Of a DNA stretch of 44,461 nucleotides, positions 1 through 20,060 are shown one piece after another. The position numbers and the translations under genes are program-made. The notes beneath the pieces are model-generated. The model had not been told where the DNA came from. It did no database searches and saw only the letters and a list, made by a program, of their open reading frames with translations. The number at the start of each line of letters is the position of its first letter. Position 1 is the first letter of the stretch. The DNA is from a bacterium (lineage in GTDB: Bacteria > Myxococcota_A > Bradymonadia > UBA7976 > UBA1532), in the NCBI GenBank assembly GCA_030424955.1, contig JAUHVS010000001.1:1-44461 (forward strand). The letters run 5' to 3'.

Positions 1-420
1 CTGCCCCTCTTCGACCACGTACGGGCCGCCGTGGGCCACCGCCGGCGGCACGTTCGCCGCCGCGTCCACCGTGACCTGCACGGTGGTCGTCTTGGTCTGG
101 CCCGCGGAGTCCACCACCCGCAGCGTCGCGGTGTAGTTGCCGCGGCGCAGGTACTGGTGCTCAAAGGGCGCGTTGACGTCGTCGGTCTCGAAGTCGGGCT
201 GGGCGTTGTTGTCCCACCACAGGCCGTTGCTGGCGTCCACGTCCCACTGGAACGCGTCGATGGTGGCGCCGCCGTCGGGGTGGAAGGACGCGCTGTGGTC
301 GAAGGTCACCCGGCCCGCGTTGCCGCCCGAGCAGCCCTCGGTCACCCGGTTGGGCTGCACCGTCGCCAGGGGCACCGGCTTCGGGTTGAACACCGTGGGG
401 GTCAGCACCAGGCCACTCAT
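1..420. repeat. Near-identical segment shared by the two giant paralogs (copy in paralog B)
   Basis: Bases 1-126 are identical to 8547-8672. Hand alignment of the next ~300 nt shows roughly 20 mismatches and no indels. Further toward the 5' ends of the genes, similarity drops and indels appear. Confidence 0.85.
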
Positions 421-2301: not shown

Positions 2302-2343
2302 GGGTTGTCGACCCCCCAAGGCGACTGGCGAAATAGCTCCTTC

Positions 2344-2372
2344 AAGGTAGCGGGCCGAGCGGTTCTGAACAA
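2344..2372 (-). promoter_or_regulatory. Candidate sigma70-type promoter of paralog B (-35 TTGTTC, 17-nt spacer, -10 TACCTT, read on the minus strand)
   Basis: Minus-strand TTGTTC = 2367-2372 and TACCTT = 2344-2349. It lies in the only AT-richer patch of the 359-nt intergenic region. A homologous arrangement sits upstream of paralog A (10864-10893). Confidence 0.3.
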
Positions 2373-2619
2373 TTCCACTCGGCACATGGAAATCTAGCGC
2401 CAGCGCACTTTTTCACAATTCGGTGTGTTTTCAGAAAGTTGTGACCGTGCGGCGCGCGCGGAGATCCGCCGAGCGGAGGCGCCTCGCCGGCCCCTGTGCG
2501 CGCAACTTGGCGCAAAGGCGGAACGACGAGGCAGCGCCAGTGTCAGGGATTGTGCGAGGTTTGCGCTTGTATACGCACACGGCCTTCAGGGCCGCGTATG
2601 CGCAGCGCACGTAGGGCTG

Positions 2620-2639
2620 CCCCCGGCGGGCGCCGGGGG
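2620..2639 (-). terminator. GC-rich hairpin 22 nt downstream of the stop of the 2661..10826 gene
   Basis: CCCCCGGC (2620-2627) pairs with GCCGGGGG (2632-2639): a perfect 8-bp stem with a 4-nt loop. There is no U-tract, so it is only a weak intrinsic-terminator candidate. Confidence 0.3.
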
Positions 2640-2660
2640 TCAGCTCAGCCCCGGGGGGGC

Positions 2661-5600: not shown

Positions 5601-8600
5601 GTTGTCCGGCGGATCGATCGCGCCCTGGCCGACCTCGATGCCGGCGATGGTCACCGTCGCCGTCAGCGGGTTGCCCGCGGGATCGCTCACGCTCAGGTCG
5701 ACCGTGAAGTTACCCGCGCCCAGGCAGGTGTTGGCCGCGTCGGCCCGCGGCGAGAGCATCTCGCCCACCGGCGGCGCCACGTCCAGCACCTCGACCTGCG
5801 CCTCACCCGGCGCGCTGCACGCCCCGGTCTGGTCACACACCACCAGCCGCACCGTGTCGACCGTGTTCACCCGCCAGTTCGCGTTGTTGTAGCGCACCGT
5901 CGCGCCCTCGAGGTCGGCCGGGTTGTCGTCGCGGCCGTAGCGCCCGTCGGCGTCCGTGTCCCACTTGTAGACCACCACCGCGTCGCACGGCGCGTTCGGG
6001 TCCAGCGACCCGCGCCCGTCCAGCGTCACGTCCGCGAACCCGCCCTGCACCGGGCCCGTCGTGTACGGGCCCCCGGCGTTCGCCACCGGCGGCTGGTTCT
6101 GCACGTCGATGACCACCACCACCTGCGTCGTGTCCGTGTGGTTCAGCCCGTCGGTGATCTGCAGCCCCGCCACGACCTGGATCTGGCCGTTCGCGTCCGG
6201 CTGCGCCACCGCGGCGCGCTGCACCACCGGGCCCTGCGCGTCGTCGTAGACCCCGTCGTTGTCGAGGTCCCACGCGTAGCTCACGATGCCGAAGCCCTGG
6301 TTGGCCGGCCCGAAGAACTCAGACCGCGCCGCCGAGAACTCCACCTGGTTGCCGCAGCCGGTCCGCGCCGGGTTCGCCGTCGCCACCGCCCGCGGGCCCG
6401 CCACAACGCGCAGCGTCGCCAGGCCGTTCGCGCTCACGCCGAACCGGTCCGTCACCGTCAGCCGCACGTCGTAGTTGCCCACGCCGGCCACGCCGGCCGC
6501 CTGCAGCTGCGCCCACGTCAGGTTCGCCTGCGCCCCGTTCGCGTTCACCGCCCCGTTCGCGCCGATGTCCCACGCGAAGCTCTGGATGCTGTCGCCGCAC
6601 GCCGCGTCCGGGTCGCTCGACCCCGCCGAGTTCAGCTGCACGCCCTCGCCCGCCACGATCACGTAGGGGCCCGCCACCTGGCCGTTCACGTCGCGGAACC
6701 CGCCCGCGTTCGGCACCGGCGCCCGGTTGCCCTGATCCACGTTGACGTCGATGGCCGTCGTGCCCTCGTTGCCGCGGGAGTCGGTCACCGTCAGCGCCAC
6801 GGTGTTCGCCTGGCCGAAGGTGAAGGCGTCGAACGCCCGCTGCACCGACTGCCCGTTGGCGTCCACCTGGCCGTCCCCGTCGAAGTCCCAGGCGTAGCCC
6901 ACGATGTCGATGGTCGGGTGCGGGTGGTTCGACGCGCTCGCGTCGAAGGTCACCCGCCCACCACAGGCCGCCGGGTTCGGGTTCGCGTCCACCAGCGCCA
7001 CCGGATCCACCGCGTGCACCCGCAGCGTCGCGGAGTCCTCGCTGGTCAGGTTGGTGATGTCCTGCACCTGCAGCCGCACCGTGTAGGTGCCGGGGCCGTT
7101 GATGCCCGCCGCGTTCAGCTCAGCCCACGTCACGGTCGCCCGCGCCGCGTTCGCCTGCTCCTGCGCGTTCGCCGCCTGCCGCGTGAGGTCGGCCTGGAAG
7201 CCGTCGTTCGCGTCGTAGGTCAGGTCCCACCGGAAGAACCGCAGGTAGTCGCCCGCCTGCGCCGAGTCCGGATCGCTCGACTGCCCGCCGTCCAGGGTCA
7301 GGTCCTCGCCCACCAGGATGTCGTAGCCCCGCTCCGGCGGATCGCTCGGATCCGCGTCCGCCGTCGGCGGCGTCGGCGGCACCGTCAGCACGATGTCGTA
7401 GCTGCCGATGTTCTGGCGGCCCGTCTCGTCGGTCACCCGCAGCCGCACCGTGAAGGTGGGCAGCGCGCCCGGCTGGCGCTGGTTCTCGGGCACCACCCGC
7501 TGGAAGTCGGTCACCGGCCGGTCAGCCGTCTCGAAGGTGCCGTCGTTGTCGAGGTCCCAGTCGTAGCGCACGATGCTCACGTTGGGCACCGGCGAGCTCG
7601 ACTCGCGGCCATCCAGCGTCACCTGCATCAGCCCGTTGTCGAGCCGCACCGACGCCGGGTTCGGGTTCTGCACCACCACCACCTCGGGCAGCGCCTCGTA
7701 CAGCGTCACCGTCACGTCCACCGTCGCCGACACGCCGAACTCGTCGGTCACCCGCAGCGTCACCCGGTTCGTCGGCAGCCCCGTCACCGGATCCGCCAGC
7801 CGCAGCCCCGCCGCGATCAGCGCGTTCCACGCCACGGTGGGGTTGGGGGTGTTGGGGATGTCGGCCGCGTCGCCGAAGGCGCCGTTGCCGTTGAGGTCCC
7901 AGGCGTAGGTCACGATGGAGTCGCCGCAGTTGGCGTTCGGCTCGCTCGAGCCCCGGCCGTCCAGCGCCAGCGCGTCGCCCTCGAGCACCGTGATGGCGTT
8001 GCGCGCCACCCGGGCCACCGGGGGCTGGTTGCCCTGGCTGATGTCCACCACGAAGGTCGTCTCGTCCGTCCGCCCCAGATCGTCGGTCACCCGCAGCCGC
8101 GCCGTGTACTGGCCGAACTGCTGGTACGCGAAGCGGAAGATCTGACCCGAGCCGTCGAAGTTGCCGTCGTTGTCCACATCCCAGTCGTACTGAGCGATGG
8201 ACCGCGCCGGGTTCGGGTGCGCCGACGCCGAGCCGTCAAAGGTCACCTCGGCCCGGCACGCCGCCGGGTTCGGGTTCGCGCGGCCGCTCGCCACCGGCTC
8301 GCTGGGGTAGATGGTCAGCGTGGTCTCGGCCGTCACCACCGCGCCCGCCGTGTCCCGCGCCCGCACGAAGATGCGGTTGGGGTTGCCCGCCCCGCGGGGC
8401 AGCCCCGCCAGCAGCGCCCAGCCCACGTTCGGGCTCGCGCCCGCCGCGTCGTTGAAGTCGTTGTCGCCGTCCAGCTCCCACGACACCGTCAGCCGATCGC
8501 CGCAGCCCAGGTTCTGGTCCGTCGCGTTGGCCGCCAGCTGCACCCCCTGCCCCTCTTCGACCACGTACGGGCCGCCGTGGGCCACCGCCGGCGGCACGTT

Positions 8601-10826
8601 CGCCGCCGCGTCCACCGTGACCTGCACGGTGGTCGTCTTGGTCTGGCCCGCGGAGTCCACCACCCGCAGCGTGGCGGTGTAGTTGCCGCGGCGCAGGTAC
8701 TGGTACTCAAAGGGCGTGGCGCTGTCGTCGGTCTCGAAGTCGGGCTGGCCGTTGTTGTCCCACCACAGGCCGTTGCTGGCGTCCACGTCCCACTGGAACG
8801 CGTCGATGGTGGCGCCCGCGTCCGGGTGGAAGGACGCGCTGTGATCGAAGGTCACCCGGCCCGCGTTGCCGCCCGAGCAGCCCTCGGTCACCCGGTTGGG
8901 CTGCACCGTGCCCAGGGGTACCGGCTTCGGGTTGAACACCGTGGGGGTCATGACCAGGCCGCCCATGGCGGAGCCCAGGTGCCCCGAGCCCCAGTGGCAG
9001 GTCACCGAGGTGGTCTCGCAGTAGTCGTCGATGACGCGCCCAAACAGGCTGTAGCCCGACATGGGGTCGTTGACGTTCATCGCCCGGTCCTGCGCCCGCA
9101 TGTAGTAGATGGTGTACATGCGGCGCCAGTCGTACGGACCGACCCGGGTCAGCTCAGGCAGGCCGGTCGCGTACCCCTTCTGGTTCGAGTACGTCGTGTA
9201 GGTGTTCCCACAGCGGCCGCCGTTGTAGACGGTGTTCTGGTTGCCGCACAGGTAGTCGCCGTTCTGCCAGTTGCCGTCCAGCCAGTGCGAGCCGAAGACT
9301 CGGCGCCGGGCAAACCAGGTGGCGGCATACGCCAGGTGCCGGTTGTAGCTGTCCACGAGCGCCGTGCGCGTCAGCGCCTGGCCGCGGCCGTAGCCGTTCG
9401 TGCGATCAGCGTAGTTGTCGGGGATGACCGTGGCCTCGTTCGGGAACGGGACGCGCGCGTCGCGGGGCATGTTGTGGGTGCCGATCATGCGGTGCGCCAG
9501 GATGGCCCCACCGGTCATCTTGAAGTCGGAGCCGCGACCGCCGCCGCCCACCCGGTTGTCGTAGGCCGCGCCGCCGTCGGTCTGCTGGTTGCTCAGGATC
9601 TGGTACGCCACGCGGTACTTGTGACGGTTGTTGACGAACACGCCGTAGGGCTCGCCCACGACCGCGACGGACTCCAGCCCGACGAAGGCCCACTGGGTGG
9701 TCGAGAAGTCGCCATAGACGCAGTCGCCGCCACCGTCGAAGGCGGTGTAGTACCAGCCACCGGTGGAGCAGCCGCCGTCGATCTGCATGTAGCCCATCCA
9801 GTCCGTCAGCTCCTGGATGTAGCGCTCCCACAGCCAGCCCGCGGGGCCGTTCTGCAGCGGCGTGCCCGCCAGGCTCGGCAGCGCCGTGGCCAGGGCGCCG
9901 AGGTTCATCCCCACGCGGTAGGTGTTGTTGTTGCCGTAGGCCGCGACGCCGTAGCCGTCGGACGTGTTGGGCAGCCGGTTGAGGGTGTTGGCGACGTAGC
10001 GCGCGCCGTCCCAGCGGTAGCCGTGCTGGTTGCTCTCGTCGGCCCGGTTGATGCCGTTGCGGTAGTAGTAGCGGGTGATGTTGTTGATGTGCCGGATGAC
10101 CGTCTCGGCGTACGGATCAGCCGCCCACCGCCGGTCGTTCTCGGCCGCCCAGCCGTTCGGCAGGTTGACGCCGTGGGCGTTGATGGTGTTGGGCGGATAG
10201 GCCGGCAGGTGGCCGTTGGTGGTGAACTGCCACAGCGACAGGTTGGTGGCGTCGAAGTACGGCGAGGACGAGTAGATGGTCGACGCGTTGCGACCGCTGA
10301 AGCCTGTCTGCTGGCGGTGCGTGTACCAGAGCGACTCCTGCACGGCCATGGTGGCCATGATCTCGACCTGCTCTTCGGTCCACTGCGTCGGGTTGGCGCT
10401 CGGCGCCCAGTCATAGACGAACAGCCGGAAGGTGCCGAACTTGTCCTGGTTGGTGCAGCGGTTGCGCACCCGCAGGTTGATGTTGAAGCTCTGGTCGCGG
10501 TCCACCGAGGGCACCAGGAACGTGCGGCCGATGTCCTGCACGTTGAAGGTGGTGCCCTCGCGGCTCACCACCCGGCTCCAGTCGTCATCGTAGTTGCCGT
10601 TGCGGTTGACGTCCCACCAGACCTGGTAGGTCCCGCAGGTGGCGTTCTGCACGATGGCCTTGAGCGTGATCTGCGCCGCCTCGTGGGCTGGGTGTGGCAG
10701 CTCCACGTTCTTCTGCGAGTACGGTACGACCAGGACTTTGTCCTGCTCTTGGGCGCTCGCGGTGGTGGGCGCGGCGAACGCCGCCAACCCCAGCACCCCG
10801 ACAACCCATGCTGTCAGTCGGTTCAT
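2661..10826 (-). CDS. Giant secreted multi-domain protein, paralog A (2,721 aa). Order: signal peptide, ~760-aa N-terminal region with Q-x-x-DGG repeats, ~13 PKD-like domains, Ig/HYR-like insert, Cys-containing helical region, terminal beta-sandwich
   Basis: Start placed at ATG 10826 (MNRLTAWVVGVLGLAAFAAPTTASAQ, a signal peptide) rather than ORF-track 10931. PKD-like signatures recur (IAQYDWDVDNDGNFDG...RLRVTDDLG, ITRYTWDFGDGT...TVTLRVDDED). N-terminal motifs are MQIDGGCSTGGWYY and LSNQQTDGGAAYD. The antisense 2,797-aa plus-strand ORF is Arg/His/Val-rich nonsense. Confidence 0.9.
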   Translation of the reverse strand: MNRLTAWVVGVLGLAAFAAPTTASAQEQDKVLVVPYSQKNVELPHPAHEAAQITLKAIVQNATCGTYQVWWDVNRNGNYDDDWSRVVSREGTTFNVQDIGRTFLVPSVDRDQSFNINLRVRNRCTNQDKFGTFRLFVYDWAPSANPTQWTEEQVEIMATMAVQESLWYTHRQQTGFSGRNASTIYSSSPYFDATNLSLWQFTTNGHLPAYPPNTINAHGVNLPNGWAAENDRRWAADPYAETVIRHINNITRYYYRNGINRADESNQHGYRWDGARYVANTLNRLPNTSDGYGVAAYGNNNTYRVGMNLGALATALPSLAGTPLQNGPAGWLWERYIQELTDWMGYMQIDGGCSTGGWYYTAFDGGGDCVYGDFSTTQWAFVGLESVAVVGEPYGVFVNNRHKYRVAYQILSNQQTDGGAAYDNRVGGGGRGSDFKMTGGAILAHRMIGTHNMPRDARVPFPNEATVIPDNYADRTNGYGRGQALTRTALVDSYNRHLAYAATWFARRRVFGSHWLDGNWQNGDYLCGNQNTVYNGGRCGNTYTTYSNQKGYATGLPELTRVGPYDWRRMYTIYYMRAQDRAMNVNDPMSGYSLFGRVIDDYCETTSVTCHWGSGHLGSAMGGLVMTPTVFNPKPVPLGTVQPNRVTEGCSGGNAGRVTFDHSASFHPDAGATIDAFQWDVDASNGLWWDNNGQPDFETDDSATPFEYQYLRRGNYTATLRVVDSAGQTKTTTVQVTVDAAANVPPAVAHGGPYVVEEGQGVQLAANATDQNLGCGDRLTVSWELDGDNDFNDAAGASPNVGWALLAGLPRGAGNPNRIFVRARDTAGAVVTAETTLTIYPSEPVASGRANPNPAACRAEVTFDGSASAHPNPARSIAQYDWDVDNDGNFDGSGQIFRFAYQQFGQYTARLRVTDDLGRTDETTFVVDISQGNQPPVARVARNAITVLEGDALALDGRGSSEPNANCGDSIVTYAWDLNGNGAFGDAADIPNTPNPTVAWNALIAAGLRLADPVTGLPTNRVTLRVTDEFGVSATVDVTVTLYEALPEVVVVQNPNPASVRLDNGLMQVTLDGRESSSPVPNVSIVRYDWDLDNDGTFETADRPVTDFQRVVPENQRQPGALPTFTVRLRVTDETGRQNIGSYDIVLTVPPTPPTADADPSDPPERGYDILVGEDLTLDGGQSSDPDSAQAGDYLRFFRWDLTYDANDGFQADLTRQAANAQEQANAARATVTWAELNAAGINGPGTYTVRLQVQDITNLTSEDSATLRVHAVDPVALVDANPNPAACGGRVTFDASASNHPHPTIDIVGYAWDFDGDGQVDANGQSVQRAFDAFTFGQANTVALTVTDSRGNEGTTAIDVNVDQGNRAPVPNAGGFRDVNGQVAGPYVIVAGEGVQLNSAGSSDPDAACGDSIQSFAWDIGANGAVNANGAQANLTWAQLQAAGVAGVGNYDVRLTVTDRFGVSANGLATLRVVAGPRAVATANPARTGCGNQVEFSAARSEFFGPANQGFGIVSYAWDLDNDGVYDDAQGPVVQRAAVAQPDANGQIQVVAGLQITDGLNHTDTTQVVVVIDVQNQPPVANAGGPYTTGPVQGGFADVTLDGRGSLDPNAPCDAVVVYKWDTDADGRYGRDDNPADLEGATVRYNNANWRVNTVDTVRLVVCDQTGACSAPGEAQVEVLDVAPPVGEMLSPRADAANTCLGAGNFTVDLSVSDPAGNPLTATVTIAGIEVGQGAIDPPDNGNAVPLQVVVNSANVPEGRHEVVVTLRNSQNAESEVTSGGRLTFDRTAPVVSIQNNLAEGVCYNPNAVPEAVVNAVDAQDNAPALNRETIEDGCGRTLRATATDACGNVGSAERTYLLAQPVEVQINGVDEGALVAQARVSWEVIGPAACASNVTARYSRNGGAAANYPESQLLNQPGNYAMTVAVANCSGVARNQIRNFSVNSAPTAVAIPAGHPNADPNLPNAYVVTEGAGLQLDGSESLAPEAGDNVARYQWDYDSDGNFDAEGGVVAFDTNEDGVFQGVLRVTDSLGATGQTLFRVTVLDVDPSADAGGPYVVAQGTPLQFDARATQPGSAADLITRYTWDFGDGTPPVNGAGLTQPEHTYEDNGAYTVTLRVDDEDSFVTVQVAVAVRDVDPIIDGINPPADPYETAPMTFTIDARPGAASDPITRIEWDMDGDGVPEYSGNNLTEVEHQFDAAGDYNVVVTVRDGDSSSVDAIVVNVREITLRELLAWTQDKVEADLADPGFPAFARFQLAPIGAALDRGLWGEDNDERGVTLMALRTIVAQLVQAQGAGADYGWELWALSRQLQREMTRMRAAILADGDDPRDANHPSIQLATDHLDNVAALYDAPGFRADLNTNDRVGVANDIFFEAVEAYYWLADSTYQCNDFNDFTLPNLADPLAIRPEANRINTDELGVALTAMRNELDGYAQKAGAPAAANVAAAVDKMDNILALQGLLLGPNCEENERCVTDREALDLELEAAQLVRDLDVAANSGAWVRQWQSCLVLALKFRIELSIQRVEFACGARTAIAQRARQVQAVGLEFVDDDQDAQALSYYAHPDRQCTLIQVYDQCLVSADPEANAPYDGDVECLNELVCRELAPTVTGGLCPVGDEANCMWPAVANDSMALVATMRNASRGPCDAADLSLALRQAPQGWMVDIMPGVDAAPGEAVQVPVTVSWPAGTAAGDYRIDVFTRQTNDATLGREFSFTVRVP
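8547..8966. repeat. Near-identical segment shared by the two giant paralogs (copy in paralog A)
   Basis: 8547-8672 is identical to 1-126, and about 93% identical (hand alignment) over the following ~300 nt. Confidence 0.85.
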
Positions 10827-10863
10827 GAACGCCCCCAAGCGATGTGGTCCTCGATCCTGGCAC

Positions 10864-10893
10864 ACCGTAGCGACCGCGCGAGCCAGTGAACAA
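10864..10893 (-). promoter_or_regulatory. Candidate sigma70-type promoter of paralog A (-35 TTGTTC, 18-nt spacer, -10 TACGGT, read on the minus strand)
   Basis: Minus-strand TTGTTC = 10888-10893 and TACGGT = 10864-10869. The 9-mer AATTGTTCA and a CTTGGGGG element just before the ATG are shared with the upstream region of paralog B. Confidence 0.3.
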
Positions 10894-11020
10894 TTGAACT
10901 TGCGGGCGGGCAGAGTCCCCTTTGAGATCAACGCCCAATGCGATCGCGGGTCGCCTGCAGGCCGCGCCGAGCGGCCGAAGCCCCCCGGCCCGCGGCGTCA
11001 GACGCTCGAAGGAGCCGCAC

Positions 11021-11434: not shown

Positions 11435-12301
11435 TCAGCCCCCGGTCGAGAGATCGGCCACCAGCCGCAGCAGCGCGCGGGCCAGCGCGTTCGCGGCCTC
11501 GGGGTAGCGCGCCTTCCACTGCGGGCTGGCGAAGAAGACAGCGTCCACCCACTGAGTCTTGCGGGAGGCCTTGAGCAGCCGAGGGTAGTGCTTCGCCGTC
11601 AGCGACGCGGTCCGATACACCGGCCGCCGATCTCGCCCGACGGTCTGGTGGAGCTTGTCGGACTCCATCTGCAGCACCTTGAGGCGATCGCCAAAGCCCC
11701 GATCCGCCAGCGCCGCGGTCCCCTGCCCTGGCTTGCCGACGATGACCATGCACTGCGCCTCCACGCCGTCCACGATCTTCAGCAGGCCCTCCTCCAGCGG
11801 CACCTCGCGGGCCTTGAAGCGCGCGAAGGCTGGATCGAGGCGACCGAAGAGGCGCCACGTGATGTAGGTGCCCGAGCCATACTGGTTCACCAGGATGCGG
11901 TGGCGCTGGGGGTGCAGGCCCGCCACGTCGTCGGCCTGTACGTCCCGGTTGCAGATCAGGTGGACCGCCTCGCCGTAGAGCGTGGTCATGCGGTCCATGG
12001 TGAGCCGGCTCTCGGGCTTCTCGAACTGGTAGAGGGCGTAGGCGTCCTCTTGGGCGATGACAGCGTCGCAGCGCCGGGGCTCCTGATCGATGGCCTCGAG
12101 GTTCTCCCAGGACCCGTGGGTCTGGATGACCTCGACCTCCACCGTGGCCGCCAGCGCCTCAGCCAGGCGCTCACCGACCTGGTGGTACGCGCCGCCAGTG
12201 GCGCCGGTGCACACCCGCAGCAGGGGGCGATCCGGCGCCGCCCCAGCGGGCGTGGCCAGCAGCACGGACGCGAGCAGGACGCAGATCGAGCGGAGCAACA
12301 C
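11435..12301 (-). CDS. TAXI/NMT1-like periplasmic solute-binding protein (TRAP-associated family)
   Basis: GTG 12301 lies 7 nt after GGAGG and gives VLLRSICVLLASVLLATPAGAAP (signal peptide). TAXI-like motifs follow: RVCTGATGGAYHQVGERLAEAL, HGSWENLEAI and VNQYGSGTYITWRLF. No TRAP membrane genes are adjacent. Confidence 0.6.
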   Translation of the reverse strand: MLLRSICVLLASVLLATPAGAAPDRPLLRVCTGATGGAYHQVGERLAEALAATVEVEVIQTHGSWENLEAIDQEPRRCDAVIAQEDAYALYQFEKPESRLTMDRMTTLYGEAVHLICNRDVQADDVAGLHPQRHRILVNQYGSGTYITWRLFGRLDPAFARFKAREVPLEEGLLKIVDGVEAQCMVIVGKPGQGTAALADRGFGDRLKVLQMESDKLHQTVGRDRRPVYRTASLTAKHYPRLLKASRKTQWVDAVFFASPQWKARYPEAANALARALLRLVADLSTGG

Positions 12302-12438
12302 GGCGGCGCCTCCATGGGTTGGGGAGGCGCGATGATGACATGTTGTGGGCAGACGGCGCCAACGGCGCGGGGTGGGCTCGCGGCCCAGCGGGGGCCCGGT
12401 GGACGCAGCGCTCAGCGCAGCGCCCACCGGCAGACGCC

Positions 12439-15400
12439 TCAGGGGGCGGGGGGCGGGACGGGCTGCACGTCCACCACGAGGACGGTCTGGCCCACGTTCC
12501 CGGCGCCGTACCCATCCACGAAGATGAAGTAGTCGCCGGCCTCGAGCTGCTGCGACAGCAGCGACTGCGAGCCCTCACCGCCGTCGTCGTTGCAGGCGAT
12601 CTCGGTGGCGGCATCGTCACACGCGCTGCGCAGGTACAGCGTGGTGTCGAAGGTCGACTGGGTGGTCTCGGCCGTGACCAACGCCGGGGCCGTCAGCTGC
12701 AGGAAGACCACCTGATCCCCACTGCGCGACGTGCTCCCACAGCTCGCCTCGTAGTCGTTTTCGCTGCCCGTGGTGTCGAGGGCGAACTGGCCCCCCGCGT
12801 CGATCAGCGCGCCCGCGACGGGCTTGGCCAGGCAGAGCTGCTGCTCGAAGTCCCAGCCAGCAGCGATGCAGGCGTCGTCGTCCGGGAAGTCGATCTGGCC
12901 GTCATCGTCGTTGTCGATGCCGTCGGCACAGGCCGGCAGCACATCAGGGTCGATCTCGCTGTCACCGAAGCCACCCGCGCAGCCCGGATCGGCGAGGTCG
13001 ATGAGGCCGTCCTCGTCGTTGTCGATCTCGTCGTTGCAGGCCACGATCAGGCTGGTGACCTCGATGGTCACGGTCAGATCGCCGGCGGGCACGAGGTCGT
13101 CCGCGTCGATGATGATGTAGTAGAGGCCGGCCTCGGCGTCGCCCACGGTGAGGCTGTCCGTGAAGGAGGCCTTGCACGCCAGCTCGGTCTCGGCGACGTC
13201 GCAGGCCTGCCGCACGCTGACCACGGCGCTGGCGGGCTCGCCCTCGACGTCGATGACCGACACCGTGAAGCGCGACCGCTCGGGCAGCACCAGGCCGACC
13301 ACGGCCTCGCCGTTGGTGCCGTTGTCGCAGCTGTGCTCGTAGGCGTCGCCACCCGCAACGTTCGGGTCGATCACCAGCGGATCGCCGCCGATCTCGTAGA
13401 GGGTCACCGCCTCCACCGCCCCGCAGGCGGCGAGCTCCGAGGTGCTGCCCGCAGCGTAGCACTCCGGATCCTCGCCGTAGTCGATGGCGCCGTCCTCGTC
13501 GTTGTCGATGCCATCGGCGCACGCCGGGGGATCGGCCGGATCGGTCTCGTCGGCGTCCAGGTCGAACACGCAGCCGGGATCCGCCAGGTCGATGAGCCCG
13601 TCATCGTCGTTGTCGACCCCGTCGTTGCACGCCACAATCAGGGGGCGCACCGTGGTGACCAGATCGACGGGATCCACGATGGCCGCGGTGGTGTCGACGA
13701 TGACGTAGTACGTCCCCGCCTCCATCACCTCGGTCAGGCTGGCCGAGAAGGACGACTTGCAGGCGATCTCGCTGCCCTCGGCGTCACAGACGCTGCGCAC
13801 CGACACCACGGCCGAGTCCGGCGCCCCGTCCGCGCCCAACACCTGGAAGGTGACCTCGGACTGCACGTCCAGGGTCAGCACGGCGATGGACTCACCGCCG
13901 GCGCCGTTGCCACAACTCCCCTCGTAGGTGTCAGCCCCGGCCTCGTCGGGATCGAGGGGCAGCGGATCGGCCCCGATCACCGGCAGCTCGCCCGGCAGGC
14001 CCGCACAGTAGGGGGCCTCGGAGGGCCAGCCGGCCGCCGTGCAGTCGGTGTCCTCCGGGAAGTCGATCAGGCCGTCGCCGTCGTTGTCGGCGCCGTCGCC
14101 GCACGCGGGCGCCTCGACCGGATCGGCCTCGGACAGATCCGCGCCGGCGTCGCAGCCCGGATCCGCCAGGTCGATGAGCCCGTCGTCGTCGTTGTCGACG
14201 CCGTCGTTACACTCCGTGACGAGGCCCACGATGGTGAACTGCACGGACATGGCGCCGGCGTTCCCTGCGCTGAAGGCGTCCGTGTAGAAGTAGTAGACGC
14301 CCGGCTCCAGCTGGTCGAACGAGAGCCGGGACAGCAGCCCCGCGCCGCCGTCGTCGTCGCAGCCGAGGAAGTCGCCCACGTCGCAGTTGCCGGCCCGCGC
14401 GAACATCATGGTGTCGAAGTCGGCAGCCACGATCTCGGCGGTCACGGCCGACGGCACATCCAGGATCAGCTGGAAGACCTGCTCCTCGCTGCGCCCCCCG
14501 CCGCCACAGGCCGCGCCGCTATAGTTGTCGCCATTGCCCGCGGTGTTGACCATGAACAGGCCGCCGGCCTGATCCACCTCGACCACGTTGTCGGTGCCCT
14601 CGCAGAACAGCCGCTCGGTGTTGTCGCCGGCCGCCGGGCAGCCGTCGTCCGCGGGGTAGTCGATGTCGCCGTCCTCGTCGTTGTCGATGCCGTCGCTGCA
14701 CTCAGGCACCTCGGCCGGATCGGTCTCGTCGTCGTCCATGCCGCGCTCGCAGCCCGGATCGTCGAGGTCGATCAGGGCGTCCTCGTCGTTGTCGATCCCG
14801 TCGTTGCACTCGCGGATGAGCGACTCGATGGCGATGTCGATCTCGAAGGCCCCGTCGGGCGAGAACAGGTCGCGCTCCACCAGGATGAAGTAGGTGCCGG
14901 CCTCGAGCTCGGTGAGCCGCAGGGGCCCGCCGAAGCTGGGCTCGCAGTCCAGCTCGGCGTTGGCGTCGTCGCACGCGGTCCGTGCCGACAGGATCGAGGT
15001 GAACCGCCCGCCGTCCGCGTTCAGGGAGGTGACGGTGAGGTTCGACAGCTCGTCGATGGTGACGGCAAAGACCACGTCCTCGCCGTCGCCGTTGTCGCAG
15101 GACGCCACGTAGGGCCCAGCCGGGTCGCGCTCGGGGTTCACCTGGAAGCGGCCGCCCGCCTGGTTGACCTCGATGGCCGCGATGTCATCGCAGCGGGTGG
15201 CCTCGGTGATGCCGCCCGCCGAGCGACAGTCCGCGTCGTCGGGGTAGTCGGTCGCGCCGTCCTCGTCGTTGTCGATCCCATCACCGCACTCGGGCAGCAC
15301 GGCGGGGTCGGTCTCGTCGGTGTCGCGGGCGTCAAAGCAGCCGGGATCCGCGAAGTCGATGAGCCCGTCGTCGTCGTTGTCGATCTCGTCGTTGCACTGG

Positions 15401-18400
15401 GTGATCAGGCTCTCGATGGCCACGGTGACCACCCAGTCGTCGGCGGGCGCGGGCTCGTCGCGCTCGCGCTCGATGAACACGAACCACGTGCCGCGATCCA
15501 GCGCCCGGGCGCGGGCGGGGCCGGCGTTGCAGGCCACCTCGCTCGCACGGTCGTCGCAGTCCGCCCGCACATAGACGACGGCGGGCGCCGCTGCGCCCCC
15601 CGCGGTGGCCACGCTGATGTCGACGTTGGACGGATCATCCAGGGTGATCGCCAGCACCTGCTCCAGGCCGTCCCCCACGGCGCAGCTGCCCTGGGTCAGG
15701 TTCCCGCCGTCCGAGGGCCGGAAGGCGAAGTCGCCGCCCGCCTGCCCGACCTCGATGATCGGGAACGCGTCGGCGCAGTAGTCCGTCTCGATGAGCCCGC
15801 CGGCGGCGTGGCAGCCGGGATCGTTCGGGAAGTCGATCAGGCCGTCCTCGTCGTTGTCGAGCATGTCGAGGCACGCCGGCGGCTCCGCCGGATCGGTCTC
15901 GTCGAGGTCGAAGGGCGTCTCGCAGCCGGGGTCCGCGCTGTCGATGAGGCCGTCCCCGTCGTTGTCGGCCTCGTCGGTGCACTGCGCGACCTCGAGGGCC
16001 TCGATGGTGAACTCGATGGTGCCCGGGCCGGAGTTGTTGGCGCCGAAGCCGTCCGCGAAGAAGAAGTACCGGCCCGCCTCGAGGCGGTTGAAGCTCAGCC
16101 GGGACAGCAGGCCGGCGCCGCCGTCGTCGTCGCAGGCCACCTGCGAGTCGGCGGCGTCGCACACGGTGCGCATGTGCAGGCCAGTGTCGTAGCCGGCCTC
16201 GATGATCTCGGCCGACACCCGCGCCGGGCCCGACAGCGTCAGCTCGAAGGCCTGCTCGGGGCTGGTCGCGCTGCCCGCACAGGTCGAGCTGAAGTTGTTC
16301 ACGCCGCCGCTGGTGTCGTAGTTGAAGACGCCGCCGTCCATGCCCACGGCCACCACGTCGTCGGTGGCCTCGCAGCTCAGGCGCTCGTCGAGATCGCCCG
16401 CCGCGCGGCACTCCTGGTCGGCCGGCCAGTCGATGTTGCCGTCGCCGTCGTTGTCCTCGCCATCGGCACAGGCGGGCGGGGTCAGGGGGTCGGACTCGTT
16501 GTTGTCCATGCCCTGCTCACAGCCCGGATCCGCCAAGTCGATGAGGCCGTCGGCGTCGTTGTCGTCGCCGTCGTTGCACTGCCGCACGAGGCTGCTCACC
16601 GCCACGCTCAGGGTCACGGCGGCGCCCGCGGGCACCTCGCCCGACGCGTCGACGATGATGAAGTAGGTGCCGGGCTCGAGGCCCTGCAGCTGGCGCGTGC
16701 CGGGCTGGCCGGCGCACGCGATCTCGGAGTCGGGGTTGGCGCAGTCGGCCCGCACGTACATCGCCACGGGCACCGGGACGTCGCCGGCGTCGGCTTGCAG
16801 GTCGAGGGCCACGTCCGAGGGCTCGTCGAGGGTCAGCTGCACCACGTACTCGCCGCCCGTCAGCTGGAAGATGCAGCTCGGCTCGGCCAGGCTCATGGCG
16901 TCGGGGAACTCCACCACCAGCTGAGCGCCGTCCTGGCCGACCTCGACGACGCTGTCGAAGGCGAGCTCGCACAGGGGCCGCTCGCGATCGACGCCCGCCG
17001 CGGTGCAGTCGGGGTCGTTGGGGTAGTCGGCCTGGCCGTCCTGATCGTTGTCGATGCCGTCCGCGCACTCGGGGACGATCTCGGGATCGGCCTCGTCCTC
17101 GTCGTCGGGCTCGATGCAGCCGGGATCGGCGAGGTCGATGAGGCCGTCAGCGTCGTTGTCGACGCCGTCGCGGCAGTGGGGCGCCGGGGTCTCCTCGACC
17201 ACCAGGCGGAACGGCCCGGGGCCGACCACGCGGCTGCCGGTGTCCACCACGACGAAGTACAGGCCCTGGGTGGGCTCGTCGATCCCGGCCACGGTGCCGG
17301 GCACGTCGCCCGCGCCGCGGTTGCACACGAGGTCGTCGGCGGACTCGCAGTTGCTGCGCACGTAGACCACCGTGGGCACGACGGTCTCGTCGAAGTCGGT
17401 GCGGAAGGTCACGCGGCGCAGCGCAGAGGTCACGCGGTAGGCGAAGACCCGCTCGGCGCCCGCGGAGCCGCCGCAGGAGCCCTGCAGGAGGGCGCTGCCC
17501 CCCTCGAGGCTGCCCTCCCAGGCGTCGTTGTCGGCGAGGTGAGCGTTGAGATCGATGACCTCGATCCCGGCGGCACACGAGCTGACCTCGGCGGAGTCGG
17601 CCGCGCTGTTGCAGCCCTCGTCGGCCGGGTAGTCGATGGCGCCGTCGCCGTCGTCGTCGAGCCCGTTGCCACACGCCGGCAGCACGGCCGGATCGGTCTC
17701 GTCGGAGTCGCCCCGGCCCTGACAGCCCGGATCATTCGGGTAGTCGATCAGGCCATCCTCGTCGTCGTCCGCGCCGTTGGCGCAGGCGCGAGGGGCCGGC
17801 GGATCGGTCTCGTCGTCATCGCCCGCGGCGCCGCAGCCGGGGTCGAGGGGGAAGTCGGTGGCGCCGTCGCCGTCGTCGTCGAGCCGGTTGCTGCAGGCCG
17901 CGATGGGGTTCTGGCCGTCCTCGGTGGGATCGATGCTGTTGACGCAGTCCGAGTCCGCGAGGTCAACCGCGCCGTCGGCGTCGTTGTCGAGGCCGTCCGC
18001 GCACTGGTTGGCCATCGCCGGATCGGTCTCATCGTCATCGGCCGCGTCCGTGCAGCCCGGATCGTCCGGGAAGTCCGTGGCGCCATCCATGTCGTTGTCG
18101 ACGCCGTCGGCACAGGCCGCGACCGGCGCACCGCCGACCCCACCCTGGCCGCCCATGCCGCCTTCGCCGCCCATGCCGCCCATGCCGCCTTCGCCGCCCA
18201 TGCCGCCGGCCCCGCCGGCGCCCCCAGCGCCGCCGTCCCCCCCGGTGCCGCCCTCGCCACCGGCGCCGCCTGGCCCACTGTCGGTGATGAGGCCACCGTC
18301 CTGGCTGGCGCCCTGGTCCGGATCACTCGACGAGCTATCGTCCGCCACGCACCCGAACAGCAGCGCGCTGCTCAGGGCGGCGACGAACCAACCCTTCAAC

Positions 18401-18414
18401 CACTCTTGCTTCAT
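12439..18414 (-). CDS. Ultra-acidic modular lipoprotein (1,991 aa): GGX tether, 21 Cys-bracketed DxDxDG (thrombospondin-type-3-like) putative Ca2+-binding motifs and 9 PPC-like beta-sandwich domains
   Basis: Start ATG 18414 (MKQEWLKGWFVAALSSALLFGC, lipobox-like LFGC). The 309 codons upstream in the ORF track are Arg/Gly/Pro junk that overlaps cobA/hemD. Motifs such as CNDGVDNDDDGLIDLADPGC and CADGIDNDEDGAIDYPxDxxC recur about every 196 aa. Each pair is followed by a domain ending ...EAGTYFIxVD.... Confidence 0.85.
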   Translation of the reverse strand: MKQEWLKGWFVAALSSALLFGCVADDSSSSDPDQGASQDGGLITDSGPGGAGGEGGTGGDGGAGGAGGAGGMGGEGGMGGMGGEGGMGGQGGVGGAPVAACADGVDNDMDGATDFPDDPGCTDAADDDETDPAMANQCADGLDNDADGAVDLADSDCVNSIDPTEDGQNPIAACSNRLDDDGDGATDFPLDPGCGAAGDDDETDPPAPRACANGADDDEDGLIDYPNDPGCQGRGDSDETDPAVLPACGNGLDDDGDGAIDYPADEGCNSAADSAEVSSCAAGIEVIDLNAHLADNDAWEGSLEGGSALLQGSCGGSAGAERVFAYRVTSALRRVTFRTDFDETVVPTVVYVRSNCESADDLVCNRGAGDVPGTVAGIDEPTQGLYFVVVDTGSRVVGPGPFRLVVEETPAPHCRDGVDNDADGLIDLADPGCIEPDDEDEADPEIVPECADGIDNDQDGQADYPNDPDCTAAGVDRERPLCELAFDSVVEVGQDGAQLVVEFPDAMSLAEPSCIFQLTGGEYVVQLTLDEPSDVALDLQADAGDVPVPVAMYVRADCANPDSEIACAGQPGTRQLQGLEPGTYFIIVDASGEVPAGAAVTLSVAVSSLVRQCNDGDDNDADGLIDLADPGCEQGMDNNESDPLTPPACADGEDNDGDGNIDWPADQECRAAGDLDERLSCEATDDVVAVGMDGGVFNYDTSGGVNNFSSTCAGSATSPEQAFELTLSGPARVSAEIIEAGYDTGLHMRTVCDAADSQVACDDDGGAGLLSRLSFNRLEAGRYFFFADGFGANNSGPGTIEFTIEALEVAQCTDEADNDGDGLIDSADPGCETPFDLDETDPAEPPACLDMLDNDEDGLIDFPNDPGCHAAGGLIETDYCADAFPIIEVGQAGGDFAFRPSDGGNLTQGSCAVGDGLEQVLAITLDDPSNVDISVATAGGAAAPAVVYVRADCDDRASEVACNAGPARARALDRGTWFVFIERERDEPAPADDWVVTVAIESLITQCNDEIDNDDDGLIDFADPGCFDARDTDETDPAVLPECGDGIDNDEDGATDYPDDADCRSAGGITEATRCDDIAAIEVNQAGGRFQVNPERDPAGPYVASCDNGDGEDVVFAVTIDELSNLTVTSLNADGGRFTSILSARTACDDANAELDCEPSFGGPLRLTELEAGTYFILVERDLFSPDGAFEIDIAIESLIRECNDGIDNDEDALIDLDDPGCERGMDDDETDPAEVPECSDGIDNDEDGDIDYPADDGCPAAGDNTERLFCEGTDNVVEVDQAGGLFMVNTAGNGDNYSGAACGGGGRSEEQVFQLILDVPSAVTAEIVAADFDTMMFARAGNCDVGDFLGCDDDGGAGLLSRLSFDQLEPGVYYFYTDAFSAGNAGAMSVQFTIVGLVTECNDGVDNDDDGLIDLADPGCDAGADLSEADPVEAPACGDGADNDGDGLIDFPEDTDCTAAGWPSEAPYCAGLPGELPVIGADPLPLDPDEAGADTYEGSCGNGAGGESIAVLTLDVQSEVTFQVLGADGAPDSAVVSVRSVCDAEGSEIACKSSFSASLTEVMEAGTYYVIVDTTAAIVDPVDLVTTVRPLIVACNDGVDNDDDGLIDLADPGCVFDLDADETDPADPPACADGIDNDEDGAIDYGEDPECYAAGSTSELAACGAVEAVTLYEIGGDPLVIDPNVAGGDAYEHSCDNGTNGEAVVGLVLPERSRFTVSVIDVEGEPASAVVSVRQACDVAETELACKASFTDSLTVGDAEAGLYYIIIDADDLVPAGDLTVTIEVTSLIVACNDEIDNDEDGLIDLADPGCAGGFGDSEIDPDVLPACADGIDNDDDGQIDFPDDDACIAAGWDFEQQLCLAKPVAGALIDAGGQFALDTTGSENDYEASCGSTSRSGDQVVFLQLTAPALVTAETTQSTFDTTLYLRSACDDAATEIACNDDGGEGSQSLLSQQLEAGDYFIFVDGYGAGNVGQTVLVVDVQPVPPPAP
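18127..18270 (-). repeat. Sixteen consecutive Gly-Gly-X triplets (coding low-complexity tether just after the lipobox)
   Basis: Residues 49-96 of the lipoprotein are GGAGGEGGTGGDGGAGGAGGAGGMGGEGGMGGMGGEGGMGGQGGVGGA. The DNA shows 9/18-nt reiteration (gcccatgccgccttcgcc). Confidence 0.8.
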
Positions 18415-18548
18415 GAAACCCCCCGGGAGGCGCAGATGTCGCCCCGTACCAAGCGCACGATTAATCGGATCGAGGCGTCCAGTGCAACGGCCCGCTGTCG
18501 GCCAGGGTACAGGATGACGGCGGTTCGGGGTCACCGGAGGCGCCCGCC

Positions 18549-20060
18549 TCAGGGAGCAGGCCCCGCCGCCGCCCAGCCTACGACCGCATCCACGAGGCCC
18601 GGGATGGTGTGGGGCGTCGCCTCGGCGACGACACGGAAGCCGGCCGCCTCGGCGGTCTGCGTCGCCACCGGGCCAATGCAGGCCGCCACGGCGTTCGCCT
18701 GCAGCGCGGCGAGCTCGGCCGGGCTGAACTGCGCCACAAACTGGGTGACCGTCGACGAGGCCGTGAAGGTCAGCAGATCGACCTCGCCCCGGGCGAGCCG
18801 GCCCCGGGTACCTGGATCGACGGCGGGGGCGACGGTGCGATAGACCGGCACCACGTCGACCTGCGCGCCCCGGGCTCGGAGGGTGTCGGGCAGCAGCTCG
18901 CGGGCCACCTCGGCCCGGGGCAGCAGGACCCGCCGGCCGGTCAGATCCTCGGGCAGCGCGGCCAGGAACGCCTCGGCCACGAAGGCCTTCGGGATCAGGT
19001 CGGGCACCAGCCCGCGGCCGCGCAGGCGCTTGGCCGTGGCCGATCCCACGCAGGCGATGGCGGCCCGGCCGAAGGCGCGCGCGTCCCGGCCCGCCGCCTG
19101 GATGGCGTCGAGGAACGCGTCGACGGCGTTGGTGCTGGTGAACAGCACCCAGTCGTACTCGCCCAAGCCCGCCACCGCTGCCTGGACCCGCGCGGGCTCG
19201 CGCGGGGGCGCAAAGTCGATGGTGGGCATCGACAGCACCTCGGCGCCCAGCGCCGCGAACCGCTCCGCCAGCGGCCCCTGCTGCTCCGGGCTGCGGGTCA
19301 CGGCGATCCGGCGGCCATGCAGCGGCTTGTGCTCGAACCACCTGATCTTGTCGCGCAGCGACACCACCTCGCCCACGATGACCGTCACCGGCGGGGCCAA
19401 CTCGTGGCGGACGAAGGCAGCCTCGGCGTCCGCCAGCGTGGTGATCACCGTGTGCTGATCAGGCCGGGTGGCCCACCGCACCAGGGCCACGGGGGTCTGC
19501 GGATCGCGCCCGGCCGCGATCAGCCCCTCGCTGATGGCGCCCAGGTTCCGGGCCCCCATGTAGAACACCACCGTCGCCAGCCCGGCCAGGGCCGCGAAGT
19601 TGACGTCCCCCTGGGGGTCGTCCGCCCGGTGGCCCGTGCACAGGCCAAGCGTGGGCCCGAAGCCCCGGTGCGTCACCGGGATGCCCGCAAAGGCGGCGCC
19701 CGCGATGGCCGCGGTCACGCCAGGGACCACCTCGAAGGGCACGCCGGCGGCGACCAGGGCCTCGGCCTCCTCGCCGCCGCGACCAAAGACGAAGGGATCG
19801 CCCCCCTTGAGGCGCACCACCACCTCGCCCTGCAGACCGCGCTCCACCAGCAGATCGTTGATCTCGCCCTGGGTGAGCCGGGACTTGCCCCGCCCCACGG
19901 CGATCAGCTCGGTGTCGGGGTGGGCATGCACCAGGTGGGCCGGGTTGCACAGGTAGTCGTAGACCACCGTGTCGGCGCAGCCCAGCAGCGACTGCCCGCG
20001 CAGGGTGAGCAGGCCCGGATCCCAGGGGCCTGCCCCCACCAGGTACACCATGCCGGTCAT
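18549..20060 (-). CDS. cobA-hemD: Bifunctional uroporphyrinogen-III C-methyltransferase / uroporphyrinogen-III synthase
   Basis: The N-terminal half has the tetrapyrrole methylase signature ([32 protein letters not shown]). The C-terminal half is HemD-like ([13 protein letters not shown]..., [12 protein letters not shown]). There is a 5-nt gap after the hemC stop. Confidence 0.9.

Follow-up and report, generated by a model that had tools for sequence, protein, structure and literature searches.

What is the 1,991-residue protein encoded at positions 12439..18414 of a 44,461-nucleotide stretch of bradymonadian DNA, and what might its long series of acidic repeats and beta domains do? The stretch, referred to below as the window, comprises positions 1 to 44,461 of contig JAUHVS010000001.1 (assembly GCA_030424955.1; lineage Myxococcota_A; Bradymonadia; UBA7976; UBA1532). 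An initial reading of its letters, made without database searches (the sequence-only reading), described a hierarchically repeated lipoprotein and proposed a Ca2+-loaded surface rod or adhesin of a type that it could not assign to a described family. The computational follow-up reported here relates the acidic repeats to a Ca2+-binding module of known structure, the C-rich domain of Teneurin-4, and the beta domains to collagen-binding and CUB-like sandwiches. The favoured reading is that of an envelope-anchored, Ca2+-stiffened stalk displaying ligand-binding domains, to which we assign a probability of about 0.5.

Reading frame, export signal and composition

The complete coding sequence lies on the minus strand, with its ATG at 18414 and its stop at 12439-12441, and specifies 1,991 amino acids (aa) plus the stop codon; the sequence-only reading had the coordinates and length right but gave no strand, which is corrected here to minus. 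Because the G+C content of the window is high (~70%), long spurious open reading frames (ORFs) occur on both strands. Third-position G+C (GC3, 0.88 in the minus-strand frame) and the translations identify the minus strand as the real gene. A plus-strand ORF of 2,174 aa at 12319-18843 was rejected, its translation being a low-complexity mixture of Arg, Gly, Ala and Val that failed the GC3 > 0.82 filter; this and the other long overlapping ORFs on both strands are high-G+C artefacts. The assigned start agrees with the gap of 134 nucleotides (nt) to the upstream cobA/hemD-type gene (18552-20060) and with conservation of the N-terminus in an orthologue from a metagenome-assembled genome (MAG) labelled Myxococcales bacterium HK-STAS-MYXO-6.

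The N-terminus (MKQEWLKGWFVAALSSALLFGC) combines the Lys/Arg-containing n-region, hydrophobic core and lipobox (pattern [LVI][ASTVIF][GAS]C within the first ~35 residues) of a signal peptidase II substrate, with LLFGC as the lipobox and Cys22 as the predicted lipidated residue. The protein is thus a predicted bacterial lipoprotein, exported and of the lipid-anchor type. The Gly tether reported by the sequence-only reading follows as a GGxGG-rich stretch, the DNA of which shows 9/18/27-nt tandem periodicity in Tandem Repeats Finder; different low-complexity tethers occupy the same place in other family members. The C-terminus, ...VQPVPPPAP, is without a MYXO-CTERM. The mature protein, of ~201 kDa, is extremely acidic, with 438 Asp and Glu residues (22%) versus 60 Lys and Arg, only 6 of them Lys (0.3%), a net charge of ~-378 and an isoelectric point (pI) of ~4. 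Histidine is found 5 times in 1,991 residues. Besides the lipid-anchor Cys there are 78 cysteines, which fit 39 disulfides (one for each of 21 repeat brackets and two in each of nine beta domains), therefore implying an oxidising, extracytoplasmic location.

Acidic repeats related to the Teneurin-4 C-rich domain

Counting in the translation bears out the 21 Cys-bracketed motifs described previously, five in an N-terminal array and a pair in every one of the eight modules; 20 are of the DNDxDG type and one is DNDEDA. Invariant in all 21 are the opening Cys, D10, D12, D14, D18, D22, the closing Cys and, eight positions beyond it, a Glu. The repeats match NCBIfam NF033662 (acidic double-disulfide repeat, acid_disulf_rpt), an annotation family without known function, in 21 stretches totalling 320.2 bits (E 5.9e-98, cut-off 41). 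They have in common with this family the acidic core C-x-D-x-x-D-N-D-x-D-G-x-x-D...D-x-x-C, but cover only profile positions ~4-28 of 32. A repeat pair scores 36.8 bits over positions ~6-27, so that each repeat contributes about half of what one teneurin repeat does (38.8 bits). The second disulfide of NF033662, implied by the family name and seen in Teneurin-4, is absent: each repeat has its two bracketing cysteines only, column 19 of the repeat alignment (equivalent to Teneurin-4 C852) holds L, F, Y, W or S, and no Cys occurs past the closing one. Because both of these cysteines are missing and profile coverage stops at ~27-28, the repeats are best described, from their alignment, as a single-disulfide derivative of the NF033662/teneurin module that serves, in pairs, to connect the beta domains. 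AlphaFold2 (AF2) gives a single, defined unit for such a pair, its acidic linker of 16 residues included (mean per-residue confidence, pLDDT, 97.7; predicted TM-score, pTM, 0.81).

The link to a solved structure comes from a profile of the 21 repeats, which finds crystal structure 7PLP, the C-rich domain of Teneurin-4, with an E value of 2.6e-4 and fly Ten-m with one of 0.017; the whole protein matches solved structures of the Teneurin-4 C-rich domain at E 0.014-0.024. In human Teneurin-4, this domain was resolved at 1.5 A with three fully coordinated Ca2+ ions, bound by E835, D840, D843, N844, D845, D847, D851, D854, D856 and backbone carbonyls; sites I and II are thrombospondin type 3 (T3)-like and site III is LDL-A-like (Meijer et al. 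2022, PMC9058538). Three disulfides (C838-C857, C852-C863 and C858-C869) close the fold, the stability of which is Ca2+-dependent, marking the sites as structural (PMC9058538). The 7PLP alignment spans C838 to C857 and covers D840, D843, N844, D845, D847, D851 and D854. Across the 21 repeats, the D840 position is Asp in 18 and Asn in 3, the N844 position is Asn in 18 and Asp in 3, and the remaining five ligand columns are uniformly Asp, with the bracketing cysteines invariant. The acidic loops are related, as judged by these alignments, to a solved Ca2+-binding module, and their T3-like ligand set is intact. Two T3-like sites per repeat would give ~42 Ca2+ per molecule, and up to ~63 with a third. 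Both proteins are acidic and, by prediction in the bradymonadian case, extracellular, and both have the first-to-third Cys disulfide together with seven Ca2+ ligand positions. They differ in that the teneurin domain is a single copy with six cysteines (paired 1-3, 2-5 and 4-6) and a conotoxin-like tail, whereas the bradymonadian protein has 21 copies with two cysteines each.

The relationship also runs in the opposite direction. The Teneurin-4 C-rich sequence itself matches NF033662 (one repeat, E 5.6e-10, 38.8 bits, profile positions 5-32), and the relatives of the teneurin domain thus include a large family in bacteria. The teneurin core had earlier been likened to a diatom enzyme and to the MopE metal motif, and a diatom or algal donor was proposed for the C-rich domain (Tucker et al. 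2012, PMC3278476); the core of the diatom glucosidase scores 37.1 bits with NF033662. The NF033662 family is unmentioned in PMC9058538, PMC13018210 and PMC3278476, and a literature search found no mention of the NCBIfam repeat name.

Other Ca2+- and metal-binding families are less close. Thrombospondin type 3 repeats are likewise Asp-rich, DxDxDG-type loops that are closed by disulfides and wrap Ca2+, but differ in spacing and flanks, and Pfam TSP_3 gave no match, whether to the whole protein (E<=1) or to the N-terminal array and three of the repeat pairs (E<=10). Neither thrombospondin nor OmpA chains occur among the PDB sequence matches listed for the repeat and pair profiles (for the pair, the best 60 of 187). 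The resemblance to thrombospondin repeats suggested by the sequence-only reading therefore survives through the T3-like sites of Teneurin-4, and not as membership. Bacterial OmpA-type TSP3 repeats, according to the citation of Dai et al. 2017 in PMC12045341, have an intra-repeat disulfide and bind Ca2+ in a disulfide-dependent manner. Pfam Ldl_recept_a and EF-hand models gave no matches on the repeats. The pair profile, from an alignment built for example on residues 1006-1068, did match the first two EF-hand loops of calmodulin at E values of about 3e-4 to 2.5e-3, aligning profile positions 6-54 with calmodulin residues 19-67 without gaps through both DxDxDG loops. Homology to calmodulin was rejected and the match is taken as motif-level convergence of DxDxDG loops, although the equal spacing is striking.

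The acidic Cys motif might instead act as a "putative metal-binding motif", raising the alternative of a MopE-type protein for copper or another transition metal. Tucker et al. (PMC3278476), the only paper returned by a literature search for "Cu-binding_MopE", aligned this 23-aa core to MopE's Cu-binding motif, and weak or faint matches to PF11617 (Cu-binding_MopE) occur in the upstream neighbours of two family members. The protein and its repeats, however, gave no PF11617 match even at E<=10, so that the metal-binding motif search proposed with the sequence-only reading came back empty for the repeats, and MopE is not among the PDB matches listed for the repeat and pair profiles (for the pair, the best 60 of 187). 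Carboxylate or amide oxygens make up all of the conserved ligands, in a protein with hardly any His, and the crystal structure of the homologous module holds Ca2+. A role in copper or transition-metal binding is, on this balance, very improbable.

Beta domains with a PPC and collagen-binding-domain fold

The nine beta domains are 137-145 aa long and contain four cysteines each. Their division into two kinds, A and B, with domains 3, 6 and 9 set apart, is evident from identities of 37-50% among these three B-type domains and of 20-33% to the other six; domain 1 is the most divergent of the nine, and the module 8 domain is 46% (MAFFT) to 49% (BLASTP) identical to that of module 7. Structure prediction, which the sequence-only reading had proposed as a check, gave a PPC/collagen-binding sandwich. 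The two-module AF2 model (residues 1006-1401, computed with 28 further A-B segments, two from the protein itself and 26 from homologues) has a pLDDT of 89.5 and contains two nine-to-ten-strand sandwiches. Its top Foldseek match is the tandem collagen-binding domain s3a-s3b of ColG (5IKU, E 5.9e-10), and the PPC domain of a B. anthracis collagenase (5SV5) aligns with a TMt of 0.75 and a root-mean-square deviation of 3.5 over 124 columns. Many CUB domains are matched as well, as are CUB+LDLa proteases and the domain of C. perfringens enterotoxin that binds claudin. The model thus predicts a fold of the PPC/collagen-binding-domain and CUB-like type.

Sequence membership of the PPC family is another matter. 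PF04151 scores 42.7 bits on the whole protein, with a single stretch reported at 1907-1967 in module 9, but single domains reach at best 18.4 (b9), 14.7 (b3), 14.6 (b6) and 13.1 (b2) bits versus a threshold of 25.9, and the other five have no PF04151 match. The PPC-like character proposed previously holds for the fold, then, and is marginal for the sequence. Of the two types, B is the more canonical, retaining the PPC-like ...G.Y...V.G(Y/F) strand pattern. Relative to the collagenase domains that are their best structural matches, the domains described here carry two extra disulfides, occur internally in nine copies and are not accompanied by a peptidase.

PPC domains usually come after peptidases. 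Combined with the PPC-like fold, the sequence relation to the teneurin C-rich domain and the enrichment of bacterial teneurin-like proteins in Myxococcota (PMC13018210), this would allow for a teneurin-like or polymorphic-toxin delivery protein, or for an accessory or propeptide part of a secreted hydrolase. Pfam and NCBIfam scans of the 1,991 residues, however, found no YD shell, NHL, toxin, peptidase or other catalytic domain, and no immunity-like or protease gene is conserved alongside. Of the explanations considered, delivery or hydrolase function is the least probable.

A parallel in design is provided by the eukaryotic CUB/LDL-A (or EGF) mosaics, such as MASP, C1r/C1s, neuropilin, enteropeptidase and TMPRSS6, in which jelly-roll sandwiches also alternate with small, disulfide-closed Ca2+ modules. 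CUB/LDL-A mosaic proteins occur among the Foldseek matches, and one family member (P0021) has a precomputed Ldl_recept_a match. The parallel is a design analogy and differs from a family relationship in that the protein has no sequence-level membership of these groups.

Module order and its conservation

Features of the protein are listed in Table 1. The eight module starts, from residue 414 to residue 1793, are 194-199 aa apart, in agreement with the spacing of 582-597 nt given by the sequence-only reading, the quantitative statements of which on the repeats all stand. Identity autocorrelation gives 0.253 at a lag of 590 aa, 0.223 at 1180 aa and 0.173 at the single-module lag of 199 aa, over a background of 0.080 +/- 0.014. 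Both the module and the super-module periodicity are thereby recovered, the super-period lying ~12 standard deviations above background, and together with the domain identities these values establish the threefold A-A-B pattern as real. Whole B modules, including linkers, are 45-53% identical to one another and all other pairs 34-45%, except modules 7 and 8 (53%). The super-period is defined by the B modules only; the A modules lack register-specific similarity, as exemplified by modules 7 and 8, which are mutually closest, and for this reason simple triplication of an A-A-B unit is not supported. Tandem Repeats Finder detects only the N-terminal array (111-nt period at 17626-17908) and the Gly tether (9-nt) at the DNA level, these being the only parts recent enough for such detection.

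Table 1. Features of the repeat lipoprotein, with residue numbers and window positions
Feature	Residues	Positions	Strand	Basis
Signal peptide with lipobox L-F-G-C	1-22	18349..18414	minus	sequence; LLFGC also in HK-STAS-MYXO-6 orthologue
Acidic/Ser segment, then GGxGG-rich low-complexity tether	23-97	18124..18348	minus	sequence
N-terminal array, five acidic repeats, period 36-37 aa	101-268	17611..18114	minus	sequence; NF033662
Beta domain 1, A-type	269-413	17176..17610	minus	domain comparison
Module 2, two acidic repeats and A-type beta domain	414-612	16579..17175	minus	sequence
Module 3, two acidic repeats and B-type beta domain (CDDDGGAG...SRLS...DGFGANNSG)	613-811	15982..16578	minus	sequence
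Module 4, two acidic repeats and A-type beta domain	812-1006	15397..15981	minus	sequence
Module 5, two acidic repeats and A-type beta domain (AF2-modelled with module 6)	1007-1202	14809..15396	minus	
Module 6, two acidic repeats (one DNDEDA) and B-type beta domain	1203-1401	14212..14808	minus	
Module 7, two acidic repeats and A-type beta domain	1402-1595	13630..14211	minus	sequence
Module 8, two acidic repeats and A-type beta domain	1596-1792	13039..13629	minus	sequence
Module 9, two acidic repeats and C-terminal B-type beta domain	1793-1991	12442..13038	minus	sequence

The closest genome match is the HK-STAS-MYXO-6 MAG, with 69% identity, and a metagenomic protein, P0002, is 57% identical. 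The order of the nine domains is the same in both orthologues, and because these were assembled independently, the architecture is not an assembly artefact. Domain by domain, the best match occupies the corresponding place in the order in 9 of 9 cases for HK-STAS-MYXO-6 and in 7 of 9 for P0002. The best cross-orthologue identity of a domain is 34-78% (45-78% where the match is positional), versus 31-50% for the best match within the protein, and the architecture is therefore old and stable, with each position individually constrained.

A large, functionally unstudied family

A HMMER search with a two-module profile retrieved 26,904 cluster representatives (50% identity) at E<=1e-3, of which 10,718 remain when the limit is tightened to E<=1e-10 and 1,868 at E<=1e-30. 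Nearly all of the clusters are unnamed; named matches are "hypothetical" or "cysteine-rich repeat protein" and come from MAGs assigned to Myxococcota, Bradymonadia or "Deltaproteobacteria". The typical order is lipobox, flexible tether, modules and terminal B domain. A lipobox is present in 107 of 224 family members and recognisable in about half of those that start with Met, and nine of the 11 members with inspected C-termini end in a B-type domain. Other members are arranged as A-A-B A-A-A-B, as A-A-B A-B, or as long acidic arrays with few beta domains. With a repeat already entered as NF033662, a known beta fold and a huge, unstudied family around it, the protein is a well-built example of a large, catalogued, functionally unstudied family and not a new kind of thing. 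The earlier statement that it could not be assigned to a described family consequently fails for the repeat and for the protein, and holds for function.

The bare acidic repeat (for example CNDEIDND...) is also found in MAGs labelled Candidate Phyla Radiation (CPR)/Patescibacteria (Saccharibacteria, Uhrbacteria, Peribacteria, Nomurabacteria and Absconditabacterales) and in DPANN and other archaea (Woesearchaeota, Pacearchaeota, Micrarchaeota, Nanoarchaeota and Methanosarcinales), at loci L008, L010, L012, L014, L015, L017, L020, L021, L024, L026-L032, L034, L035, L037 and L039.

A proposed Ca2+-stiffened stalk

From the anatomy, family relations and fold described above, we infer Ca2+ binding, rigidity, surface exposure and adhesion, as follows. 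Sec export and lipidation at Cys22 would tether the protein to a membrane, most likely the outer membrane with the chain facing outwards, and the Gly-rich segment after the anchor would act as a flexible leash. Five acidic mini-repeats would come next, then eight modules, each consisting of a compact repeat pair and a four-Cys beta-sandwich. Every repeat, closed by one disulfide and carrying the Teneurin-4-type Asp/Asn ligand set, could bind Ca2+, making the pairs rigid, protease-resistant connectors between the sandwiches. The sandwiches themselves are candidate binding surfaces for an external ligand, which might be a matrix polymer, a prey surface or a partner protein; each position keeps its own sequence across orthologues, with a canonical B domain at every third module and at what would be the distal tip. 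The "Ca2+-loaded surface rod or adhesin" of the sequence-only reading is consistent with all of these findings.

A precedent exists in TraA of M. xanthus, a kin-recognition receptor of the cell surface, the Cys-rich region of which has been proposed to serve as a stalk that presents a recognition domain (PMC12045341). TraA resembles the present protein as a myxobacterial lipid-anchored surface protein with a disulfide-rich repeat region, the proposed stiff stalk, and a beta-rich recognition domain (PMC12045341). Its Cys-rich repeat is a different one, however, it is anchored through a C-terminal MYXO-CTERM and it has one variable domain, in contrast to an N-terminal lipobox and nine beta domains. 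The bacterial OmpA-type TSP3 repeats mentioned above, with their disulfide-dependent Ca2+ binding, provide a second precedent for the design.

Several observations weigh against this proposal. The repeats lack the second disulfide found in the NF033662/teneurin module. The third, LDL-A-like Ca2+ site is doubtful as well, because the D856 equivalent is Gly in 14 of 21 repeats and E835 has no equivalent, the position three residues before the first Cys varying between repeats. Foldseek with the AF2 repeat pair gave no significant match: the three candidates were all Teneurin-4, the best with E 3.6 over 19 columns, and because the pair is without a solved structural counterpart, the teneurin link rests on sequence. 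PPC, collagen-binding and CUB-like folds are generic beta-sandwiches for which no ligand can be named. Sequence likewise does not reveal whether the protein is exposed at the surface or oriented towards the periplasm. No functional partner (enzyme, transporter or secretion gene) is conserved nearby in five family loci and the window. Finally, all listed homologues are unnamed, "hypothetical" or generically called "cysteine-rich repeat protein".

Much of the composition could also be accommodated by a polyanionic sink or buffer for Ca2+ (or other hard cations), or by a cross-linker that bridges anionic exopolysaccharide through Ca2+ in a biofilm or floc matrix, in either case without a specific ligand. 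The 22% Asp and Glu, the 6 Lys, the strongly negative charge, the low pI and the 21 multi-site Ca2+ motifs would all suit such a role, as would the generic DxDxDG Ca2+-loop character indicated by the matches of the pair profile to calmodulin EF-hand loop pairs. A sink would not, however, need nine individually conserved, disulfide-locked beta-sandwiches in fixed order, nor a lipid anchor with a leash, and the related Ca2+ sites of teneurin are structural and fully coordinated. We consider a sink or cross-linker unlikely. Like the other alternatives considered here, it is less well supported than the Ca2+-stiffened stalk.

Gene neighbourhood

Upstream of the gene lie hemA, a probable hemC (placed by synteny) and cobA/hemD; downstream is a gene for an NMT1_3-type binding protein. 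The order mreB-mreC-mreD-PBP2-RodA-Trx-CcsA-hemA-hemC-hemD-X-NMT1_3, with X the repeat lipoprotein, is common to the window and the P0002 contig, and the part from hemA to NMT1_3 is also present in the HK-STAS-MYXO-6 MAG. The mre/hem/NMT1_3 context is limited to close orthologues; elsewhere the neighbours are SecA, unrelated genes or other giant acidic-repeat proteins.

The proximity of mreBCD-pbp2-rodA and haem genes, in an order conserved in the P0002 contig and partly in HK-STAS-MYXO-6, might point to a periplasm-facing envelope spacer or structural lipoprotein tied to cell-wall growth. This synteny, however, is lost beyond the close orthologues, Pfam and NCBIfam scans of the protein found no peptidoglycan-binding domain, and nine sandwiches with 21 mini-repeats, if stretched out, would by rough estimate reach far beyond the width of a periplasm. 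A periplasmic spacer is accordingly quite improbable.

The upstream neighbour (18552-20060, minus strand) is a fusion gene, its 503-aa product joining a tetrapyrrole methylase (TP_methylase) to a uroporphyrinogen-III synthase (HEM4); the syntenic gene encodes a 265-aa HEM4-only protein on the P0002 contig and is a 490-aa ORF in HK-STAS-MYXO-6. Downstream, the ORF of the NMT1_3 family (TAXI/solute-binding-like; 11438-12427, minus strand) has a possible start 11 nt after the stop of the repeat lipoprotein gene. NMT1_3 proteins occur downstream in both orthologous loci and measure 292-300 aa, for which reason the true start is probably internal by 30-38 codons. The gene may be co-transcribed with that of the lipoprotein.

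Farther downstream, positions 2664-10931 (minus strand) encode a secreted protein of 2,756 aa, in which a signal peptide (MNRLTAWVVGVLGLAAFAAPTTASA) is accompanied by six or more PKD domains, a NEW3 domain and a match to the REJ domain, and a further PKD-containing protein (1-2412, minus strand) runs off the end of the window. With the repeat lipoprotein they make up a cluster of giant proteins, secreted or at the surface. In the loci of two more distant family members, L042 (6532-8004) and L043 (4484-7894), a large protein directly upstream has the weak or faint PF11617 matches noted above, and in L042 it is preceded by a protein of >3,352 aa (1-6418). Acidic-repeat proteins thus appear to occur in tandem gene arrays.

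Implications

The most useful by-product of this analysis is that NF033662 is now tied to the only solved structure of its module, the Teneurin-4 C-rich domain, a link that makes the Ca2+-binding prediction residue-specific and testable. The predictions comprise the ligand residues, the disulfide map and the Ca2+ load of ~42-63 per molecule. The link also bears on the origin of the teneurin domain. The protein itself offers a clean, fully resolved example of the abundant and unstudied giant surface lipoproteins of uncultured predatory or social bacteria.

Tentatively, proteins of this type in Myxococcota and Bradymonadia might be multivalent surface receptors that depend on Ca2+, a class so far unrecognised and a bacterial counterpart of the CUB/LDL-A mosaic receptors. 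If so, each positionally conserved beta-sandwich would have a different external ligand, be it prey envelope, matrix or kin, and the paired single-disulfide repeats would constitute a new rigid connector derived from the teneurin C-rich module. As a corollary, the teneurin C-rich domain, for which a diatom or algal donor was proposed (PMC3278476), would have a bacterial reservoir, and in the very phylum that is richest in bacterial teneurin-like proteins (PMC13018210). Should the beta domains not be specific binders, what is left is a large acidic repeat protein; if they are, the family becomes a candidate for recognising prey or matrix in Myxococcota.

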